From Patescibacteria group bacterium (GTDB lineage Bacteria > Patescibacteriota > Minisyncoccia > Phycocordibacterales > SBAW01), in NCBI GenBank assembly GCA_016176685.1, contig JACOWS010000002.1:30608-94607 (forward strand): a DNA stretch of 64,000 nt, read 5' to 3'. Each line of letters starts with the position of its first letter. Position 1 is the stretch's first letter. The notes under the pieces were generated by a model. The model had not been told where the DNA came from. It searched no databases and was given only the letters and a program-made list of their open reading frames with translations. Positions 1,945-58,482 of the stretch are shown here, piece after piece. A program made the position numbers and the translations under genes.

Positions 1945-1967
1945 CCTTCTGCACGATATGAATCCAG

Positions 1968-2030
1968 CACACCTGCTCAAGAGGGTAGGACTTGGCCTAG
2001 CGGCCCGGAGCGCCCTCTTGAGCAGGTGTG
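1968..2030 (+). repeat. Family 1 conserved-loop hairpin element, copy 1 (18-bp perfect stem plus 27-nt conserved loop TAGGACTTGGCCTAGCGGCCCGGAGCG)
   Basis: cacacctgctcaagaggg / ccctcttgagcaggtgtg is a perfect inverted repeat around the conserved core. It lies just 3' of the aminopeptidase stop. Confidence 0.85.
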
Positions 2031-2043
2031 TTGGCTAAATTAT

Positions 2044-17206: not shown

Positions 17207-17222
17207 AATAGTGCGCAGGAAG

Positions 17223-17297
17223 AAAACCCGCTGCAATTTTAAAGGGTAAGACTTGGCCTAGCGGCCCGGAGCGCCCTTTAAAATTGCAGCGGGTTTT
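17223..17297 (+). repeat. Family 1 conserved-loop hairpin element, copy 2
   Basis: 24-bp perfect stem aaaacccgctgcaattttaaaggg / its reverse complement around TAAGACTTGGCCTAGCGGCCCGGAGCGC. It lies between tRNA-Pro (+) and the exonuclease gene (-). Confidence 0.85.
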
Positions 17298-17301
17298 CGG
17301 A

Positions 17302-24319: not shown

Positions 24320-24943
24320 TTGCGTATGAACCCGCTTGAGCGCCTAACCAAAAACTTTGAACGGTTCCCCGGCATTGGCCCCCGGCAGGCAAGACGCTTT
24401 GTGCAGTTTTTACTTGTACAGCAGGGCGCCTATCGCACGGCGCTCGCCGACGACATCAAACGTCTCGGGGCAAACTCCTTCCAGTGCAAAAAATGTTTTC
24501 GGTGGTCGGTTAAAAACGGCAGCTCGCACGCCGTGTGTACTATATGTAGAGATGCTCACCGTGAGACCGGGCTTTTATGTGTGGTGGAAAAAGACGCCGA
24601 CCTCGACAACGTCGAGCGCAGCGGCTTTAAGGGTCTCTACTTTGTTTTGGGAGGGACCATACCTCTCGCCGCCGAAGAGCCAGAGGCCCATGTCCGCGCA
24701 CGAGAGTGTATAATGCGCATAGAGGAAGACGGCACTAAGGGTGTGTTAAAGGAGGTTATTTTGGGCCTCTCCGCCACCACCCTAGGCGACCACACCAGGG
24801 GCTTCCTACAAGAAAAGATACTGCCTATAGCGCAAGCGCTCAATTTTAAAATTACATCACTGGGTCGCGGGCTCTCAACCGGCTCGGAGCTGGAATATGC
24901 CGACCCGGACACCATCGCCAGCGCATTATCCTCTAGATACTAG
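24320..24943 (+). CDS. recR: Recombination protein RecR
   Basis: HhH 'FPGIGPRQARRF', C4 zinc finger and Toprim domain. Confidence 0.9.
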   Translation: MRMNPLERLTKNFERFPGIGPRQARRFVQFLLVQQGAYRTALADDIKRLGANSFQCKKCFRWSVKNGSSHAVCTICRDAHRETGLLCVVEKDADLDNVERSGFKGLYFVLGGTIPLAAEEPEAHVRARECIMRIEEDGTKGVLKEVILGLSATTLGDHTRGFLQEKILPIAQALNFKITSLGRGLSTGSELEYADPDTIASALSSRY

Positions 24944-25018
24944 AGAAACAAAAAAGTCCTTTGTACAGGAGTAGGGCTCCCGTTCATCTCTCCGGAACAA
25001 AGGACTTTTTTGTTTCTC
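24943..25018. repeat. Family 2 conserved-loop hairpin, copy A (22-bp perfect stem; loop contains GGAGTAGGGCTCCCGTTCATCTCTCC)
   Basis: gagaaacaaaaaagtcctttgt / acaaaggacttttttgtttctc around a 32-nt loop. It fills the gap between the recR stop (+) and the rplU stop (-). Confidence 0.8.
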
Positions 25019-25359
25019 TACGCAATCTTTGTTATCTTTACCTCAAAAAAGGGCTGGCGGTGGCCGCGTTTTTTAAAATAGTTGGACTTTGCTTTGTACT
25101 TGATAACCACCACCTTCTTGGCGCGGTCTATTTTTTGTATCTCTGCCGAAACCTTAGCCCCCGCAATGTAAGGCGTCCCCAAGGTGGTGTCTTTTCCATT
25201 GTCTACCACTAGCACCTTGTCAAAAGTTACCGCGTCGCCAATCGCGTAAGCTCCCTGCTCCGGGCTTGCAGGAGCAAGCTTCTCTATTTTGAGGGTGTCA
25301 CCCTGGGATACCATATACTGTTTCCCGCCGGTTTCTATGATGGCAAACTCCTTTTGCAT
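25018..25359 (-). CDS. rplU: 50S ribosomal protein L21
   Basis: 'MQKEFAIIETGGKQYMVSQGDTLKIEKL' L21 N-terminus. The longer track ORF is a read-through of the adjacent hairpin. Confidence 0.9.
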   Translation of the reverse strand: MQKEFAIIETGGKQYMVSQGDTLKIEKLAPASPEQGAYAIGDAVTFDKVLVVDNGKDTTLGTPYIAGAKVSAEIQKIDRAKKVVVIKYKAKSNYFKKRGHRQPFFEVKITKIA

Positions 25360-25405: not shown

Positions 25406-25489
25406 GATGAGAATCCGCAGCCATTTTGGATGGTAAGACTTGGGTCTTTAGCGGCCCGGAGCGCCATCCAAAATGGCTGCGGATTCTCA
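25406..25489 (+). repeat. Family 1 conserved-loop hairpin element, copy 3 (loop variant with a 3-nt insertion)
   Basis: 27-bp perfect stem atgagaatccgcagccattttggatgg / its reverse complement; loop TAAGACTTGGGTCTTTAGCGGCCCGGAGCGC. It lies just 3' of rmuC and 5' of rplU. Confidence 0.85.
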
Positions 25490-25496
25490 TATTGTA

Positions 25497-26646: not shown

Positions 26647-27099
26647 ATGACACACCTGGAGTTGAAGGAGGCCATCAAAACCACCATGAAGGCAAAAGAC
26701 ACTGTGCGGCTCGGGGTCTTGCGCGGGCTCTCTGCCGCGGCCGTGAACGACTTGGTGGCCAAAAGCCGTAAGCCGGACGAAATGCTAACCGAAGAGGAGT
26801 TGATGACGGTTATCATGCGTGCGGCCAAACAGCGCAAAGACTCGATAGAGCAGTTTGAGAAGGGCGGCCGGCCCGAGCTTGCACAGGGCGAGCGGGCGGA
26901 GCTTGTAATACTCCAAGCACTCCTCCCCTCCCAGCTCTCGCGCGAGGAGATAGAAAAAGCGGTAAAAGAGAAAGCCACCACGCTTGGAGTAACTGACAAA
27001 AGCGGTGCCAATAAGCTCATGGGTATGCTAATGAAAGACCTCAAGGGCAAGGCCGACGGCACGGTAGTTAAGGAAGTCGTTGATTCCCTCTTTTCCTAA
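26647..27099 (+). CDS. GatB/YqeY domain protein
   Basis: 'MTHLELKEAIKTTMKAKDTVRLGVLRGLSAA...' is the typical YqeY family sequence. Confidence 0.8.
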   Translation: MTHLELKEAIKTTMKAKDTVRLGVLRGLSAAAVNDLVAKSRKPDEMLTEEELMTVIMRAAKQRKDSIEQFEKGGRPELAQGERAELVILQALLPSQLSREEIEKAVKEKATTLGVTDKSGANKLMGMLMKDLKGKADGTVVKEVVDSLFS

Positions 27100-27228
27100 A
27101 GTTGGACTTACGAAGTCCAACTTTGGGGACAAATGGCTTGACAAACAAGCAAAAATCTGCATAATCTGTAACGGAAGTGTTGCGTTCCTACCAATCCTAA
27201 AGTTGGACTTACGAAGTCCTACTTTCCA
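27098..27228 (+). promoter_or_regulatory. Consensus sigma70-like promoter (TTGACA at 27138-27143, CATAAT at 27160-27165) flanked by two copies of the 27-bp palindrome AAAGTTGGACT-TACGA-AGTCCAACTTT
   Basis: Palindrome 1 is at 27098-27124 (perfect). Palindrome 2 is at 27199-27225 (one arm degenerate). The -35 and -10 boxes are 16 nt apart. Confidence 0.6.
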
Positions 27229-29821: not shown

Positions 29822-29894
29822 GCTGACAAGGCAAAAAAAGAGAGTAAGACTTGGCCTAGCGGCCCGGAGCGCTCTCTTTTTTTGCCTTGTCAGC
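29822..29894 (+). repeat. Family 1 conserved-loop hairpin element, copy 4; supplies the last codons and TAG stop of the FAD oxidase gene
   Basis: 22-bp perfect stem gctgacaaggcaaaaaaagaga / its reverse complement around TAAGACTTGGCCTAGCGGCCCGGAGCGC. The minus-strand reading of the arm plus core gives ...ADKAKKESAPGR*. Confidence 0.85.
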
Positions 29895-31631
29895 TGTGGT
29901 AACCGGCAAATCCAGGTGTGCAAACGCGTCGGAAAAGGTCGTCCCCACCTTTTTTCCTGGGTTAAAGATATTTTGCGGGTCAAATATTGACTTTACTTCG
30001 TGGAAGAGTGCAAACATCTCCTTTCCAAACATCTTTTCCACATAGGGCGTGCGGACTAGCCCGTCGTTATGCTCGCCGGTGATAGAGCCGTGGTAGGAAA
30101 GCACCAGGTCGTACACTTTGTGAGAAAGTTCGTCCAGTACCTTTCGCACACCGGGGTCCCGCGGGTCGACCAGAGGAATAATATGAAAGTTGCCGTCGCC
30201 CACATGGCCCGCAACCGTGTAGGTAAGCTTGTAGCGCGAGAGTATCTTTTCAAGTTTCGGCAAAAATTCAACAAGCGACGACGGGGGCACCACAAAGTCG
30301 TCTATAAAAGGGGCGGTGCGGCGGCCGACCACTTTTTTACGCAAGAGGTTAAAACTCTCGCGCCGCACCACCCAGTATTTGCGTGCGGCTCGCTTTGTCT
30401 TTGCAACGCGCACTTTCAGGTGTGTGCGGTTCTGCCTCACCTCCTGTGCAAGAGCTTGGGCTTTTCCTGTTGCCTCTTTTTGGGTCTCGGCACGGAACTC
30501 TACCAAAAGCACCAGCTTGGGCACCCCGCCGGAGAGCACCATCCACACTTCCGGCAAAAATGAGAGCCCCAGTTTAACCAGACCAACTATTCCGCCCAAG
30601 GCGAATTGGCCTTGGGCCGACATTTGTTGGGCAAACTCAAAGAAGTACTTGGTTGCCAGAGTAAACGTATGGTCGTCGTACGACTCAAAGCTGTCCGGCT
30701 CGTGCTTTAAAACCTCCGGCACCACCTCGCCAAGTTCGGACAGCGAGCGGAGGAAAATGACGGTCATCGCGGCATAGGGTTTGGGGCGCACCAGAGTGAA
30801 CCATATTTTTGTGATGATGCCGAGCGTACCCTGGGCTCCCACCATAAGGCGCGCCAAGTTAAGCGAGGGAGTACCGCCTGCCCGGCCTTCCGACGGATCG
30901 CCCACCTCCCACAGCGCATAGCCGGAGGAATTTTTTTCAACCTTTGGTTTGTGCTCCGCTATCACCTTGCGGTGCAGGGGGGTGCTTATCAGTGCGCGGA
31001 CACGGCGGTACACGCTACCTTCCCACGAGTCTTCGGCAAGTTTTTGCTGTAACTCCTCCCCTTCCAGTTTTTTAAAGTGATGTACCGCTCCGTCGGCGCA
31101 CACGACGTCGAGCTTTTCTACATACCGGGCAGTTTTGCCGTATTTTAAGTTCTTTTCCCCGCCGGAGTCGTTGGCAACCATGCCGCCTACGGCGTTGAGC
31201 TCGCGGCTGGCGGTATAGCTTGGGAGTTCCAGCCCCTTCTTCTTCGTCTCTTTGTCAAAGTCGCGGAAAAACATCCCCGGCTCTGCCACCGCATGGCCTG
31301 CCACTCCCGCGGCGCCGGGGATAGCATCAAGCTCCAGCAGGCGGTGTAGGTGTTTAGTGACGTCCAGGACTATAGAGTCGCCCAAGGGGCCTCCACCCAT
31401 GTCTGTACCCGCCGCGCGCGGGGTAATGGAGAGGTGCGTCTTGGGGACCTTTTTCTTTTCGTCTACAAAGCGCACTGCGGCGCAGATATCCTCCGCGTCT
31501 TTTGGATACACTACAACCTGCGGCCGCACGGCAAACAAGCTCGCGTCGCGACTGTAATGCGCCAAGGTCTCTGGCGAGTCATCCACCTCGCCGCGCAGTA
31601 TTTTACGCAGTTCTTCCCCCAAACTGCTCAT
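29856..31631 (-). CDS. FAD-binding oxidoreductase (FAD-linked oxidase, GlcD/D-lactate dehydrogenase-like)
   Basis: PCMH-type FAD-binding domain motifs and a C-terminal oxidase domain; 591 aa. Confidence 0.8.
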   Translation of the reverse strand: MSSLGEELRKILRGEVDDSPETLAHYSRDASLFAVRPQVVVYPKDAEDICAAVRFVDEKKKVPKTHLSITPRAAGTDMGGGPLGDSIVLDVTKHLHRLLELDAIPGAAGVAGHAVAEPGMFFRDFDKETKKKGLELPSYTASRELNAVGGMVANDSGGEKNLKYGKTARYVEKLDVVCADGAVHHFKKLEGEELQQKLAEDSWEGSVYRRVRALISTPLHRKVIAEHKPKVEKNSSGYALWEVGDPSEGRAGGTPSLNLARLMVGAQGTLGIITKIWFTLVRPKPYAAMTVIFLRSLSELGEVVPEVLKHEPDSFESYDDHTFTLATKYFFEFAQQMSAQGQFALGGIVGLVKLGLSFLPEVWMVLSGGVPKLVLLVEFRAETQKEATGKAQALAQEVRQNRTHLKVRVAKTKRAARKYWVVRRESFNLLRKKVVGRRTAPFIDDFVVPPSSLVEFLPKLEKILSRYKLTYTVAGHVGDGNFHIIPLVDPRDPGVRKVLDELSHKVYDLVLSYHGSITGEHNDGLVRTPYVEKMFGKEMFALFHEVKSIFDPQNIFNPGKKVGTTFSDAFAHLDLPVTTADKAKKESAPGR

Positions 31632-32258: not shown

Positions 32259-32921
32259 CTACCCCTTTTTGTCGAGAACAAACCGCCACGGCTTGTTTAC
32301 ATACTCACCCGCGGAGTCAATGCCGATGCGCGGGGTGCATCGCACTTGACCACGCCCTACCTCTACTCCTCTGTCCTCAACCCACAGGCCGGTCTTTTTG
32401 CCGAGCGGTTTGTTGTTTAGCTTTTTGTCTACCTGCAAAAACTTGGTGAGTTTTGCCGGACCGTCAAGGCGCACGCCAACAGGGCGAAAAAAGAGGGCGC
32501 TCCGGGCCGCTAGGCCAAGTCCTACCCTCTTTTTTCGCCCTGTTGGCGGCAGCTCACCGTGTGACAAGATTCGACTTTGCCATTGCGGTTCAAGGCCGCG
32601 TATCAGAACAGCCGCAGGATATCTTTCTTTCCCGCACACCAGGTTAAGCATCCAGTGCATGCCGTAGGTAAAGTACACGTACACCACTCCGGGGCGGCCA
32701 AACATCGGCGTGTTGCGAGCGGTTTGCCCGCGGTGGGCATGGCTGGCTTTGTCTCTTGGGCCGTCGTACGCTTCGGTCTCAACAATCATAAGTGCTACTT
32801 CACTGCCCCGTACCCTGCGCACTAAAAATTTTCCCACAAGTTCCCGCGCCACGGTAAGTGTTGGCCGGTCAAAAAACGCCGCTTGTAGAACTTTGCGCAT
32901 AGGTTGCATGATACGCAACAT
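32259..32921 (-). CDS. mpg: DNA-3-methyladenine glycosylase (Mpg/AAG family) carrying an in-frame hairpin-element insertion
   Basis: 'FLVRRVRGSEVALMIVETEAYDGPRDKASHAHRGQTARNTPMFGRPGVVYVYFTYGMHWMLNLV...IRGLEP...DGPAKL'. The 220-aa length equals a typical roughly 196-aa Mpg plus a 24-aa insert. Confidence 0.85.
   Translation of the reverse strand: MLRIMQPMRKVLQAAFFDRPTLTVARELVGKFLVRRVRGSEVALMIVETEAYDGPRDKASHAHRGQTARNTPMFGRPGVVYVYFTYGMHWMLNLVCGKERYPAAVLIRGLEPQWQSRILSHGELPPTGRKKRVGLGLAARSALFFRPVGVRLDGPAKLTKFLQVDKKLNNKPLGKKTGLWVEDRGVEVGRGQVRCTPRIGIDSAGEYVNKPWRFVLDKKG
32475..32545 (-). repeat. Family 1 conserved-loop hairpin element, copy 5, embedded in-frame in mpg (translated as PPTGRKKRVGLGLAARSALFFRPVG)
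   Basis: 22-bp perfect arms ccaacagggcgaaaaaagaggg / reverse complement around GTAGGACTTGGCCTAGCGGCCCGGAGCGC on the gene strand. The reading frame is preserved. Confidence 0.85.
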
Positions 32922-39272: not shown

Positions 39273-40933
39273 CTACAAAAGTATCTCGACTAGTCGGCTT
39301 AATACAAAGTCGCGTTCCAGTGCGGAAAGGAACCACCCGGCTTGCGGACCGTGCGTTTTGCCGAGGAAAGCCAGGTAGATTGCTTTAAACAGCTCCGCCG
39401 GGGCTATGCCCTGCCCTTCCTTTATTTCATGCAGTTTTTTGTGCAAGTCATCACCGCTTGGCATCTGCGGCGACACTTCTATATATCGAAGTAGCTCGCC
39501 GAGAGCTTTTTTCTGCGCGTCGCTTAAACTGTTAGCTGCGTCCGGGAGCGTTTTCTGCAGTTCATAGACAAACCTCTCCGGCGCATATTGTGCGAGCCAT
39601 TTTTTTGCATACGAGGCGCGCTCCTTGAGCTCTGTTTTATCCTCTGCGGTGAGCGCACCGCCTTTTATTTTTTCCACCTCCACTTCCACCTTAAGGTGCG
39701 GCATCTGCACGATGAAGGCCACTTGCGAAAACCGCGGGAGAAAGACCGGTGGCGGAATCCGCCGGAGAAATGGTCTGGCCTCGCCTTGCCCGCCAGGAGA
39801 TTGCGGGCGAGCGAGGAGACCCGAGGACCTTTCTCCGGCGGATTCCGCCGTAGGTTCAAACAAATATGAAAACAACCGCGCGTAGTCGTCTTTGACGCCG
39901 GCCCAATAGCTCAAGGCGAGTTTGTCGTACTGGTCGTAGAGCACCGGTATGGTATCGCCCTCGGGGTCGAAATTTATTTGCTGGTTGATGTCGCGGCCCA
40001 GCAGTGCCAAACGGAAAATCTTTGTGGGTACCAGGTCTGAAATTTCTTTAGCACTGCTCCCCCTCCCTTTGCTTGACGACATCTTTTTGCCGCCCGCGAG
40101 CAAAAACTCGTAGGGGATGTCAAACGGCGGCTCGTAGTTGAAGACTTCTTTGGAAATATGGTTGGCCACGTCGCGCGAGCCGCCGCGCGTCGAGTGGTCT
40201 TTGCCCGCGCCCTCTACCAAAACTCCGCCCACCTTCCACTTTGCGGCCCACTCAACCTTCCACGGCAACTTGGCTTTACCGCCAAACGGGGAAACTCTGC
40301 CCGCAAATCCGCATCCTTTTGTATATTCAACCTTATCTTCTCTGCAGAGGACGGCCACTGTTTTGCCATCGAAGTCGCTTGCTTCTGTGGTTGCTATCTT
40401 TCCGCACCCCGGGCACACTACGGAGAGCGGGAGCCACTCCCCTTCTTTTTGCGAGCCGGAAACTTCTTTATATATAGTGCGGATTTTTTCGGCATTCTTG
40501 AGCGCCCCGGTAATAGCCCCGTCCATGCGGCCAGAAAGATATAGGTCGCTTGCCCACGAGTATTCTGGGGTAAACCCCGCATGCGCTATGGCTTTCTTAA
40601 AGTCGTCGGCAAAGTACTCGGCAAAGTTTAGGGCGCTGGGCTCTGGTGATGGCACGTTTTTAAGCGGCATTCCCAAATAGTGCTCAAATTGTTCGCGCGG
40701 GAGGTAGGCGGGGATGTCATCCATCGGGTCAAAGTCGTTCATCTCAAAGCGAAATACGTTCGGGACTTTTGCTCCGCGAGTATCTTGGCCACCGCGCCGT
40801 GTATTGCCACCCCGCGCATAGAACCTATGTGTACGCGGCCGGAGACCGTCTTTTCGTCGCGTACGACAATGGTACCCTTCCGGCCCTTGTAGCGCTCGAC
40901 TATCTCCCCCGCTATCCGCTCTGCCCAAAACAT
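39273..40933 (-). CDS. lysK: Class I lysyl-tRNA synthetase (LysK type) with an apparent single-base frameshift near 40765-40768
   Basis: Frame A (40933 to about 40766) encodes 'MFWAERIAGEIV...SGRVHIGSMRGVAIHGAVAKILAEQK' (HIGH region). Frame B continues 'VPNVFRFEMNDFDPMDD...CPGCGK...KMSSSKG' and matches archaeal-type LysRS throughout. The junction lies in an A4 run on the coding strand (TTTT on plus) that would need to be A5. Confidence 0.8.
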
Positions 40934-48934: not shown

Positions 48935-49012
48935 CAGCCAGCGGAGCAAAAAAAGAGGGCACTCCGGGCCGCTAGGCCAAGTCTAACCCTCTTTTTTTGC
49001 TCCGCTGGCTTG
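48935..49012 (-). repeat. Family 1 conserved-loop hairpin element, copy 6 (core variant TTAGACTTGGCCTAGCGGCCCGGAGTGC); supplies the holB-like C-terminus and TAG stop
   Basis: 25-bp arms cagccagcggagcaaaaaaagaggg / reverse complement. On the gene strand the arm plus core reads ...ASGAKKEG-TAG. Confidence 0.85.
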
Positions 49013-49699
49013 CAGTTGTGGCAAGGTAGCGGCCAAGTGCTCCAGGAGCATTTTGTAGGAGGGGGCGCGGTCGTTTGCGTAGCCGCGGATTTTTGCAATG
49101 TCTTCAAGCCCTTCTCGCACCCTACTATTCCCTTTTGCCAGGTGCGGATACATTTCCACCTCGAGCGCGTCTAAAAATGCGCGCACCGACTCGCGTAGGC
49201 CTTCGTCGTCCCCGACCGAACGACCGGAGTCGTCCGGTCGGGCGGGTTTGAGCATTTTGGCTATTTCCGCACTGCGCGCCGTTTGCGAGCTAGCAAGAAA
49301 TTTCCTGGCAAGCGCATGCTCAACAATGATGGATTTACGAAGTCCATCATTGGGGTATGGAGTCATTCTCGAGCGCAGGGTCGGTATGACCGTGCCATGT
49401 GGAGTTAACAAAACAAAGATGGTCCCCTGCTGCGGCTCTTCAAACAATTTTAAAAGCGCCTGCTGGGCTTCTATGGTCATGGTGGAAACGCCCACTACAA
49501 AAAGCGCGCGGCCCGTGGCCGACCTAAGCCCTGCCGCTTGCCGCAAGGCGCGCGCCTCGCCTATACCAAAAGTCTCTTCACTAACCACCCTAACGTCCGG
49601 GTCACCCTGTTTTGTAAAAGTAAAACGTGTACGCGCATCCTCTACGAGCCCTACAAGGTTTGAAAGAGGCCCTTCAAAAAGGTAGGCGTGGTGCTGCAT
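48983..49699 (-). CDS. holB: DNA polymerase III delta-prime subunit-like (HolB-like clamp-loader subunit)
   Basis: 'ALLKLFEEPQQGTIFVLLTPHGTVIPTLRSR' clamp-loader box; start chosen at MQHHAYLFEGP. Confidence 0.65.
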   Translation of the reverse strand: MQHHAYLFEGPLSNLVGLVEDARTRFTFTKQGDPDVRVVSEETFGIGEARALRQAAGLRSATGRALFVVGVSTMTIEAQQALLKLFEEPQQGTIFVLLTPHGTVIPTLRSRMTPYPNDGLRKSIIVEHALARKFLASSQTARSAEIAKMLKPARPDDSGRSVGDDEGLRESVRAFLDALEVEMYPHLAKGNSRVREGLEDIAKIRGYANDRAPSYKMLLEHLAATLPQLQASGAKKEG

Positions 49700-49710
49700 G
49701 TACGCAGTAT

Positions 49711-49795
49711 AGCGAAGCAAAAACCCTTTGCGAAGGAGTAGGGTTCCCGTTCATCTCTCCTTTGCAAAGGGTTTTTGAGCAGTTTACCGCTTCGC
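49711..49795. repeat. Family 2 conserved-loop hairpin, copy B (loop GGAGTAGGGTTCCCGTTCATCTCTCC; inner 13-bp stem plus outer 7-bp stem)
   Basis: aaaaaccctttgc / gcaaagggttttt plus gcgaagc / gcttcgc. It lies between the mreB-2 stop (-) and the holB-like start (-). Confidence 0.8.
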
Positions 49796-57965: not shown

Positions 57966-58250
57966 TCCGCGGTAGCTCAATGGTAGAGCAGCTCCCTGTC
58001 AGCAGGCAGCCTCCCACAGGAATGTGGGTTGCAAACGAGGTGAATTCGGGGAAATCCTAAGCTTTGTCGAAGGACAATCCCGAGCCAAGCTCCAGATTTT
58101 GGAGAAGGTGTAGAGACTATCCCGCAAGGGAGTACTCTCAAAAAGAGGAAGCCCCTCGCATCCAGAACGGATGATGATATAGTCCACGCCCGCAGTAATG
58201 TGGGGAAACGTGTAAGGAGTTGGTTGTAGGTTCGAGTCCTACCCGCGGAG
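57966..58250 (+). tRNA. tRNA-Asn (GUU) interrupted by a 213-nt group I intron in the anticodon loop (mature length 72 nt)
   Basis: Exons UCCGCGGUAGCUCAAUGGUAGAGCAGCUCCCUGU / UAAGGAGUUGGUUGUAGGUUCGAGUCCUACCCGCGGAG fold as tRNA-Asn with loop CUGUUAA and G73. The 5' splice site is after U, the intron ends with G, and a GCAGG internal guide-like segment follows the splice site. Confidence 0.7.
58000..58212 (+). ncRNA. Group I self-splicing intron (subgroup IC3-like) within tRNA-Asn
   Basis: Contains blocks nearly identical to the Azoarcus/cyanobacterial tRNA introns: AATTCGGGGAAATCCTAAGC, GAGCCAAGC and GAAGGTGTAGAGACTA (J8/7-P7). No ORF. Confidence 0.7.
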
Positions 58251-58482
58251 CCCAGTCCCCCGACCCCCGTCTGGGTAACCTCTCGGTTTCCCAACATCTC
58301 GCTACGCTCAATCCTTCCTCCACGAGGGACTAGGCGTCTTTTGCTCTGCAAAAGCCGAGGGTAGGACGAGAACGAGGGGTGGGTCGGAGGGGAAACTATA
58401 GTGTCCCCTCCGTGGAGGAAATTATTCAAAACCGTGGGTTTTGAAAGCGCAGTCTCGTTATAGCGGGACGAGCAGTGAGTAC

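Follow-up and report, generated by a model that had tools for sequence, protein, structure and literature searches.

The mpg gene of a Patescibacteria group bacterium (assembly GCA_016176685.1, contig JACOWS010000002.1) carries a long DNA palindrome within its coding sequence, which raises the question of where this palindrome came from and how an enzyme gene can accommodate it. The gene is located on the minus strand at 32259..32921 of the 64,000 nt stretch that was analyzed as a whole (positions 30,608 to 94,607 of the contig; hereafter the window). It is an intact coding sequence for a 3-methyladenine/alkylpurine DNA glycosylase of the AAG fold, as judged from PF02245, a match to human AAG and a predicted structural model. 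A preliminary description, made from the letters of the window, took the palindrome for a hairpin element inserted in frame and compared it with the Rickettsia palindromic elements (RPEs). According to the best reading of the present results, the element is undescribed and behaves like RPEs.

The palindrome is a perfect hairpin of 75 nt on the minus strand, with two arms of 24 nt each (32474-32497 and 32525-32548) that are 100% complementary and separated by 27 nt; the strand defined by its core (the F strand) is the mRNA strand. The extent first given, 32475-32545, was thus right to a few bases, the measured one being 32474-32548. In gene orientation the 5' arm of the inverted repeat (CGCCAACAGGGCGAAAAAAGAGGG, 32525..32548, minus strand) encodes PPTGRKKR, the conserved 29-nt apical core (GTAGGACTTGGCCTAGCGGCCCGGAGCGC, 32497..32525, minus strand) encodes VGLGLAARSA in the mpg frame, and the 3' arm (CCCTCTTTTTTCGCCCTGTTGGCG, 32474..32497, minus strand) encodes (A)LFFRPVG. 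The trinucleotide TGC adjoins the unit on both sides. The codons at 32475-32549 correspond to residues 125-149 of Mpg (PPTGRKKRVGLGLAARSALFFRPVG) and contain neither a stop nor a frameshift, in agreement with the description of an in-frame hairpin that leaves the gene undisrupted; the peptide had been given correctly to one residue, with a count of about 24 instead of 25. The predicted RNA fold has a free energy of -58 kcal/mol (z=-8.9). A 21-mer of the arm occurs in the window only at its two arm positions, with 0 occurrences expected.

For comparison, the 120 best Mpg homologues were collected, of which 112 could be classified at the linker site. The linker from ...AAVLIRG to GPAKL comprises only 5-6 residues in 59 of these 112 (e.g., AGEVV or VEGIN), and the hairpin segment is therefore an insertion, which agrees with the preliminary description. 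Other Mpg proteins with segments of similar length at this position are all from Patescibacteria, and their segments are translations of this or other hairpin families in varied frames and orientations and not a conserved part of the protein. The closest relatives show what was inserted. A protein with 81% identity (P0003/L119) has the same element in the same orientation according to the DNA alignment. In another with 82% identity (P0002/L117) the same arms enclose a reversed core, in the 30-nt sub-variant also seen in the window at 25407-25490, which yields the peptide ALRAAKDPSPT in the same frame; a reversed core within the same arms, giving another peptide, is understandable only at the DNA level. 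A third relative (P0004/L120, 70% identity) carries a hairpin of a different family (family 2) with 21-bp perfect arms at the same mpg codon, exactly in place of the short linker, and would read ...LIRGLE-GLDGPAKL without it, which is the minimal form. From the minimal orthologues and this allele it follows that both arms belonged to the inserted DNA; a snap-back model, in which one arm is native and the other its inverted copy, was rejected on the same grounds. The protein RarA likewise gains about 20 residues, roughly a whole palindrome, where such an element is present.

At the Mpg site, families 1 (that of the window hairpin) and 2 are each recorded in either orientation, along with a third family (FEKVLGSPVSRRPLRGGLAGQTF) and a number of inserts left unclassified; these states are scattered among minimal forms on a neighbor-joining tree of Mpg. 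Family 1 occupies the site in the window and in L098. The claim that the element spreads or persists at the DNA level is borne out by the reversed core of P0002 and by the peptide itself, which is the literal translation of a repeat that is mostly intergenic elsewhere.

The open reading frame (ORF) of mpg comprises 220 codons, or 213 from the start annotated by NCBI. Without the element the protein had been estimated at about 196 residues; this has to be corrected to about 176 residues, counted from Met8, because the adjacent 12 residues are lineage-specific as well. The usual size of Mpg in Patescibacteria is 171-181 residues. According to the alignment, these 12 residues (PQWQSRILSHGE) are encoded by an extra in-frame segment of 36 nt directly 5' of the element (32553..32588, minus strand), which is shared by the window and P0002 and is missing from the 81%-identical P0003/L119. 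Possibly the segment was left behind by an earlier element that had occupied this mpg site; its PQ..S....G pattern weakly resembles the left part of family 3.

Family 1 is defined by its loop. When the hairpins of the window were aligned, the loop proved common to them but the arms did not, and the 25-mer GACTTGGCCTAGCGGCCCGGAGCGC of the core occurs five times in the window at no more than one mismatch, with 0 occurrences expected; in a sixth copy the loop is longer by an inserted 3 nt. A covariance model of the family, built from 72 copies, recovered exactly these six copies with 70-92 bits, the next best hits (at most 33 bits) being their own reverse strands. The mpg copy scored 89.3 bits (E=1e-22, minus strand). 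The others are located between an M29 peptidase gene and scpA (1964..2034, plus strand, 83.8 bits, intergenic), between tRNA-Pro and a convergent exonuclease gene (17222..17298, plus strand, 86.3 bits), between rmuC and rplU (25407..25490, plus strand, 70.5 bits; the sub-variant with a 30-nt loop, core GGGTCTTTAGC), at the 3' end of the ORF for an FAD-linked oxidase at 29856..31631 on the minus strand (29822..29894, plus strand, 91.9 bits) and at the junction of holB-like and nth-like genes (48936..49010, minus strand, 88.6 bits), where it contains the stop of the ORF 48983..49720 on the minus strand. The latter two copies supply the last 8-12 codons of their genes, the oxidase gene and the holB-like gene, together with a TAG stop within the core. 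In the case of the oxidase these are the last 12 residues (ADKAKKESAPGR); its relatives end about 12 residues earlier with ...LDLPSVQK*, and the element-encoded C-terminus is found only in the window.

In the family as a whole the core is 29 nt long (GTARGACTTGGCCTAGCGGCCCGGAGCGC) and the unit about 70-85 nt, with arms of about 17-27 bp (length peak at 21 bp) that begin directly at the core or past one G.A/A.G mismatch and include a proximal stem of about 4 bp. Position 4 of the arms is G:C in 91% of the copies, A predominates at positions 5-10 of the 5' side and T at those of the 3' side, and the distal arms are the least conserved part of the unit. An exact 22-mer of the core was found in at least 116 species-representative genome stretches, all of which, among the matches listed, were metagenome-assembled genomes (MAGs) either of Patescibacteria (the Candidate Phyla Radiation, CPR) or without a label; they include Kaiser-, Adler- and Nomurabacteria, Paceibacterota, gut Saccharibacteria and Nanosyncoccus, although some of the MAG taxon labels may be loose. 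As the loci were picked by this exact 22-mer, core conservation within the sample is partly by construction, and divergent cores do exist in second copies (L019, L055, L074, L100 and L113). A search against Rfam 15 at the gathering threshold gave no match for any copy and only sub-threshold hairpins of the miRNA-precursor type, with E-values up to 10. By eye only, the core was compared with a tRNA D-arm, loop E of 5S rRNA and a k-turn; Rfam lends no support to such resemblances, and none is claimed. Searches of the accessible literature with the core sequence, with the core peptides and with Patescibacteria in combination with palindromic or RPE terms yielded no description of the element.

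The arms vary while their pairing is maintained. In a gapless alignment of the 72 copies 90.8% of the arm cells were paired, compared with 50.5% after shuffling and 42-51% in slid controls; all 22 arm pairs had changed on both sides, with a covariation score of 1.00 versus 0.22. The arms of the copies at 32474, 48936 and 29822 are about 78% identical to each other and each is 100% self-complementary, and whole units must therefore have been copied, their arms changing afterwards with compensation. Movement of the core alone into the loops of existing hairpins found no support as a general rule on account of the full-length homology of these arms (about 78%); core exchange into an existing hairpin is possible in a case such as P0002. 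Orthologous intergenic copies record the same process. They are found 8-30 nt after smpB (L007, L026, L096 and L102), in the gatC-gatA spacer (L022, L038, L116 and L054) and near ftsZ and trxB (L005, L037 and L093); between the species, whose proteins on either side share 70-94% identity, the arm changes are compensated. One example is the gatC-gatA spacer, where GG/CC of one species is matched by AA/TT of another and a G:T intermediate exists. In one species at each of two of these sites, the copy is oppositely oriented and its arms are unrelated.

The mismatches that remain in the arms are not distributed evenly between the strands. On the core (F) strand, 86 of 176 arm mismatches were G:T or T:G and 14 were A:C or C:A (binomial p ~1e-13), with at least one G:T in 58 elements and at least one A:C in 13. 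The bias persisted where the host mRNA is the opposite strand (12 versus 2). This wobble bias and its independence of orientation point to a hairpin that acts as one strand of fixed polarity rather than as a portion of the local mRNA, and the relevant form would be a strand-specific single-stranded fold, either of single-stranded DNA (ssDNA) or of RNA. Regarding replication, the F strand tends to be rich in C locally, its GC skew being negative in 67 of 110 copies (mean -0.019; binomial p ~0.03, t-test p=0.006), and pairs of copies within one locus mostly have the same orientation. The negative skew hints at a link with replication and is not decisive; GC skew within the 64-kb window was uninformative on the replication strand.

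Insertion into genes is a property of the family and not only of the mpg copy. With gene proxies based on ORFs, which are noisy, 29 of 130 family-1 copies lie inside long ORFs (a few of them spurious antisense ORFs), which leaves about one fifth of the copies in real genes; a further 29 of the 130 overlap a C-terminus or supply a stop codon, and intergenic positions and stop codons together account for about 60% of the copies. The core has four open frames out of six, each of which is seen as a peptide: VRLGLAARSA, xKTWPSGPER, ALRAARPS(L/P)T and RSGPLGQVL. Pfam checks of ten host proteins identified every one as a true housekeeping protein with domains that extend across the insert: a PrmC-like methyltransferase, RarA/MgsA, MiaA, a class V aminotransferase, IF-2, ArgRS, Val/IleRS, an FtsJ-like methyltransferase, TruB and a Wzy-like ligase. 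From genome to genome, one and the same site of a gene can be filled in either orientation and by copies with unrelated arms, as observed in the PrmC-like gene (L014, L027 and L032), in rarA (L017, L053 and L089), in miaA (L043 and L084) and in mpg (the window and L098). Orientation is unrelated to the direction of the flanking gene (55 versus 64 at 3' ends, 18 versus 15 inside ORFs), which suggests random insertion followed by filtering for an open frame.

Copies are also gained and lost. The RarA of the window is empty at the site that is filled in L017, L053 and L089. The locus L201 is syntenic with the window over genes for a Mur ligase, mpg, the FAD oxidase, rarA, yqeY, rmuC and rplU, and its 20.7 kb contain not a single family-1 copy, compared with three in the window; its mpg contains a family-3 insert, and a plain GC hairpin follows its FAD oxidase gene.

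The Mpg protein itself appears little affected by the insert. The match to PF02245 (Pur_DNA_glyco) covers residues 16-218 (E=4e-56, 189.6 bits), and in the match to human AAG (E=1e-30) the catalytic motifs of AAG (VETEAY..., ...YGM..MN... and ...LIR...) are aligned; these motifs surround the catalytic Glu, the intercalating Tyr and Asn/Arg. An AlphaFold model based on 35 sequences had a mean predicted local distance difference test score (pLDDT) of 82 and a predicted template modeling score (pTM) of 0.80, and superimposed on human AAG with a template modeling (TM) score of 0.68-0.79. Values of pLDDT below 50 were confined to residues 1-4 and 115-148, i.e., the insert and the extra 12 residues, which are placed in the model between a strand at 103-111 and a helix at 155-161. 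A low-confidence loop on an otherwise confident AAG-like fold supports the earlier suggestion that the insert is tolerated in a surface loop. Judging from the model, the glycosylase of the window looks functional with a disordered extra loop, and the insert is presumably carried along and tolerated, no role of it in the enzyme being evident.

Taken together, these observations make it probable that family 1 is a non-autonomous palindromic repeat which is copied whole to new sites in either orientation, by way of a strand-specific single-stranded hairpin that a trans-acting factor reads through the loop, and which persists where it is harmless. In mpg, the whole unit with both arms would have entered the short linker after the ...LIRGLE strand, and this copy may have survived owing to a length that is a multiple of three, an open frame of the core and a tolerant linker, its translation product forming a disordered surface loop. 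The family would spread, or would once have spread, by the copying of whole units in either orientation, with the single-stranded hairpin of one strand recognized by the factor via the conserved loop. Selection on the fold, conversion between arms and copies, or both, could uphold the pairing of the arms, with the outcome that the arm sequence drifts while the loop stays constant. In this scheme, we infer from the patterns described above that the element moves as a unit, passes through a single-stranded intermediate and has its loop recognized by a factor.

Several points weigh against it. When the ORFs within 2.5 kb of 117 copies were clustered, the recurrent neighbors were housekeeping genes only, and no mobilizing enzyme was among them. 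Across 50 copies there was no consistent target-site duplication and there were no conserved termini, some copies having GA on either side. Among the genomes no two were related closely enough to compare a filled and an empty site base by base. That different families recur at one Mpg codon, scattered on the tree, requires a hotspot or replacement in place, which the copying of whole units does not explain, and the translation of the mpg insert into protein is deduced. Finally, orthologous intergenic copies persist, with compensatory arm changes, across species with 70-80% identity of the neighboring proteins, and the core is kept from Paceibacteria to Saccharimonadia; for both facts a motif useful to the host is at least as good an explanation as purely selfish DNA.

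The last point leads to the rival explanation that survives best, namely that the hairpins are structured motifs with a function for the host (a terminator, an RNA stability element or a protein-binding site on ssDNA or RNA) at the ends of genes, and that the coding copies are tolerated spill-over. It is not mutually exclusive with a mobile repeat, and we regard it as a serious though unlikely account of the family. The conservation of the core across classes speaks for it, as do the orthologous placement with compensated arms at smpB, gatC-gatA, ftsZ and trxB in several species, the proportion of about 60% of copies that are intergenic or at stop codons, and the presence in L201 of a plain GC hairpin in place of the window element after the FAD oxidase gene. 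Arms made of an A-run and a T-run around a short G/C proximal stem also recall a bidirectional terminator, but a proximal stem of about 4 bp on a 29-nt loop, with the U-tract paired to the A-tract, would make a poor intrinsic terminator, and dozens of copies lie in essential ORFs, where termination would be harmful. A host motif would further have to be reconciled with random orientation relative to the flanking genes and with the gain and loss of copies between relatives, and a function in cis within the mRNA is made unlikely by a G:T wobble that follows the core strand even where the mRNA is the opposite one. For the mpg copy a role as terminator was considered and rejected, given its position inside the ORF, the pairing of its T-run with the A-run and the random orientation of the family.

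It is much less probable that the element is removed from the transcript like an intron, or bypassed, so that Mpg is made without the 25 residues. The RNA fold is self-contained and very stable (-58 kcal/mol), Patescibacteria are rich in introns, with a group I intron in the window itself, and the wobble bias points to a single-stranded form. On the other hand, every coding copy examined was open in one of the four stop-free frames, which would be needless if the element were excised (no systematic search for split or frameshifted hosts was made); no ribozyme or intron family matched, and copies in reverse orientation also occur in ORFs in spite of the strand-specific fold.

Two further explanations are effectively excluded. 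The first regards the segment as ancestral to Mpg, the counterpart of a helical region of about 30 residues between ...LRALEP and GPSKL in human AAG, with the hairpin as a coincidence. Some length of the linker is indeed ancestral to the wider family in view of the human protein, but the peptide reads out a DNA repeat that the window contains five more times, mostly outside coding sequence, it shows no similarity to the AAG segment in the alignment, a close orthologue has the core reversed, and other lineages have different hairpin families or five residues instead. The second and least probable, an artifact of assembly or library preparation (a hairpin adaptor or a chimeric inverted duplication), could appeal to amplification chimeras, which can yield perfect palindromes, but fails on the occurrence of the same core in at least 116 independent assemblies from many projects and habitats, on the ordinary substitutions between orthologous copies and on the preserved reading frames.

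Returning to a non-autonomous repeat copied as a unit, the closest known parallel is provided by the RPEs. In the account of them in PMC10969869 (Ogata et al. 2000, 2002), these are non-autonomous palindromic repeats, often found in frame in housekeeping genes, and no transposase is known for them. Both are short palindromic repeats of reduced, host-dependent bacteria that occur in frame in unrelated housekeeping genes, form several families and are compatible with the protein fold. They differ in the host phylum and in size (about 75 nt here versus about 100-150 bp), and whereas RPE families are set by their overall sequence and encoded peptide, in family 1 the loop is conserved and the arms co-vary, and a single core is found in four reading frames, in either orientation, with no conserved peptide as a consequence. 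The likeness to RPEs drawn in the preliminary description thus holds for the behavior and not for the element, which, compared by description and not by RPE sequence, appears to be a behavioral analogue of RPEs and not a member.

Repetitive extragenic palindromic sequences (REPs) and REPINs, which are associated with RAYT transposases, are likewise dispersed hairpin repeats whose mobility is thought to proceed via a single-stranded hairpin and a trans-acting enzyme (PMC3116915). In REPs, however, the arms are conserved and the loop or spacer varies, which is the reverse of the situation in family 1, and REPs are extragenic by definition, whereas about one fifth of the copies here are in ORFs. 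No RAYT-like gene was among the recurrent neighbors, in a search that covered 116 loci of 8 kb each and not whole genomes. The tetranucleotide GTAG is found beside REP hairpins, and a GTAG/GTAA motif occurs at the 5' edge of the conserved part of family 1. MITEs (miniature transposable elements with inverted repeats) such as Correia, ERIC and Nezha are similar in being small, non-coding and multi-copy and sometimes in frame with ORFs (PMC10969869). Family 1 differs from them in having no conserved terminal inverted repeats and, among recurrent neighbors, no related full-length insertion sequence (IS); as to target-site duplications, TGC adjoins both ends of the mpg copy and GA those of some copies, with nothing consistent across 50 copies.

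The ends of IS200/IS605 elements and the attC sites of integrons combine a conserved structure with a variable stem and one active strand, act beside their own transposase or integrase genes or cassettes, and have no conserved loop of 29 nt. An active single strand of this kind would yield the excess of G:T over A:C that is seen in family 1, although no such enzyme was found among the recurrent neighbors of the copies. Another possible parallel is offered by the small dispersed repeats of Nostoc, reportedly described by Elhai et al. in 2008, which are said to be mobile, 21-27 nt long, in some cases enclosed by pairing flanks and in some cases nested in other repeats; a small core within pairing flanks resembles the core of about 29 nt with its variable arms. 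The Nostoc repeats are cyanobacterial and have other sequences, and we know of no report of their frequent in-frame occupation of housekeeping genes.

Besides family 1, the window contains other hairpins and structured elements. Family 2 has a conserved loop of its own (GGAGTAGGGYTCCCGTTCATCTCTCC) and variable arms, and is represented by a hairpin with this loop between the convergent genes recR and rplU (24941..25020, plus strand) and by a second one, likewise intergenic, at 49718..49777 (plus strand); its translation RSGEMNGSPTPAR, or GVGLPFISP when reversed, fills the Mpg site in many other lineages of Patescibacteria. A family-3-like palindrome of 99 nt (39751..39849, minus strand) is read in frame as 33 codons in the ORF for a class I LysRS (39273..40928, minus strand; PF01921, E=5e-72), where the peptide ...PTAESAGERSSGLLARPQSPGGQGEARPFLRRIPPP... 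is placed between the catalytic and the anticodon-binding domain. The family of this palindrome fills the Mpg site in P0007, P0011 (L201) and P0016. Clustering of hairpin loops across all loci for further families gave a result that was too noisy. Two tandem small perfect hairpins (AAAGTTGGACTT-ACG-AAGTCCAACTTT) at 27086-27225, after a YqeY-like ORF, are terminator-like and unrelated to the family-1 core. A group I intron (RF00028, 56.7 bits) was detected at 57986-58205, within 57966-58270 on the plus strand, and appears to split a tRNA gene just after the GTC (Asp) anticodon; the 5' half is TCCGCGGTAGCTCAATGGTAGAGCAGCTCCCTGTCA, the 3' half comprises the T-arm GGTTCGAGTCC and the acceptor strand CCGCGGA, and the split gene was not called by ARAGORN.

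A more far-reaching and so far speculative idea, which we hold to be unlikely as it stands, is that the conserved loop is the handle of an undescribed machinery of Patescibacteria acting on strand-specific hairpins. This could be a new way of mobilizing small DNA (HUH-like, by retro-copying or by template switching, with no transposase nearby) or a host system of replication, recombination or RNA processing that makes use of hundreds of such hairpins per genome, those in essential genes included. If so, the recurrent occupation of one codon by different families would reflect the targeting of existing hairpins or core exchange in place, and protein loops would evolve in a way that is new.

Palindromic repeats read in frame within housekeeping genes had been thought to be nearly a peculiarity of Rickettsia, and are now seen throughout the phylum Patescibacteria, another lineage of reduced, host-dependent bacteria. 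The combination of a constant loop with co-varying arms is unusual, and the strand-specific wobble signature makes the mechanism (ssDNA or RNA, and the factor involved) testable. The 22-mer of the core is a compact metagenome marker for the DNA of Patescibacteria. For the proteins of these organisms, family-1 elements inflate and diversify surface loops and supply C-termini and stop codons, and they can mislead gene calling, homology modeling and alignment-based phylogenies.

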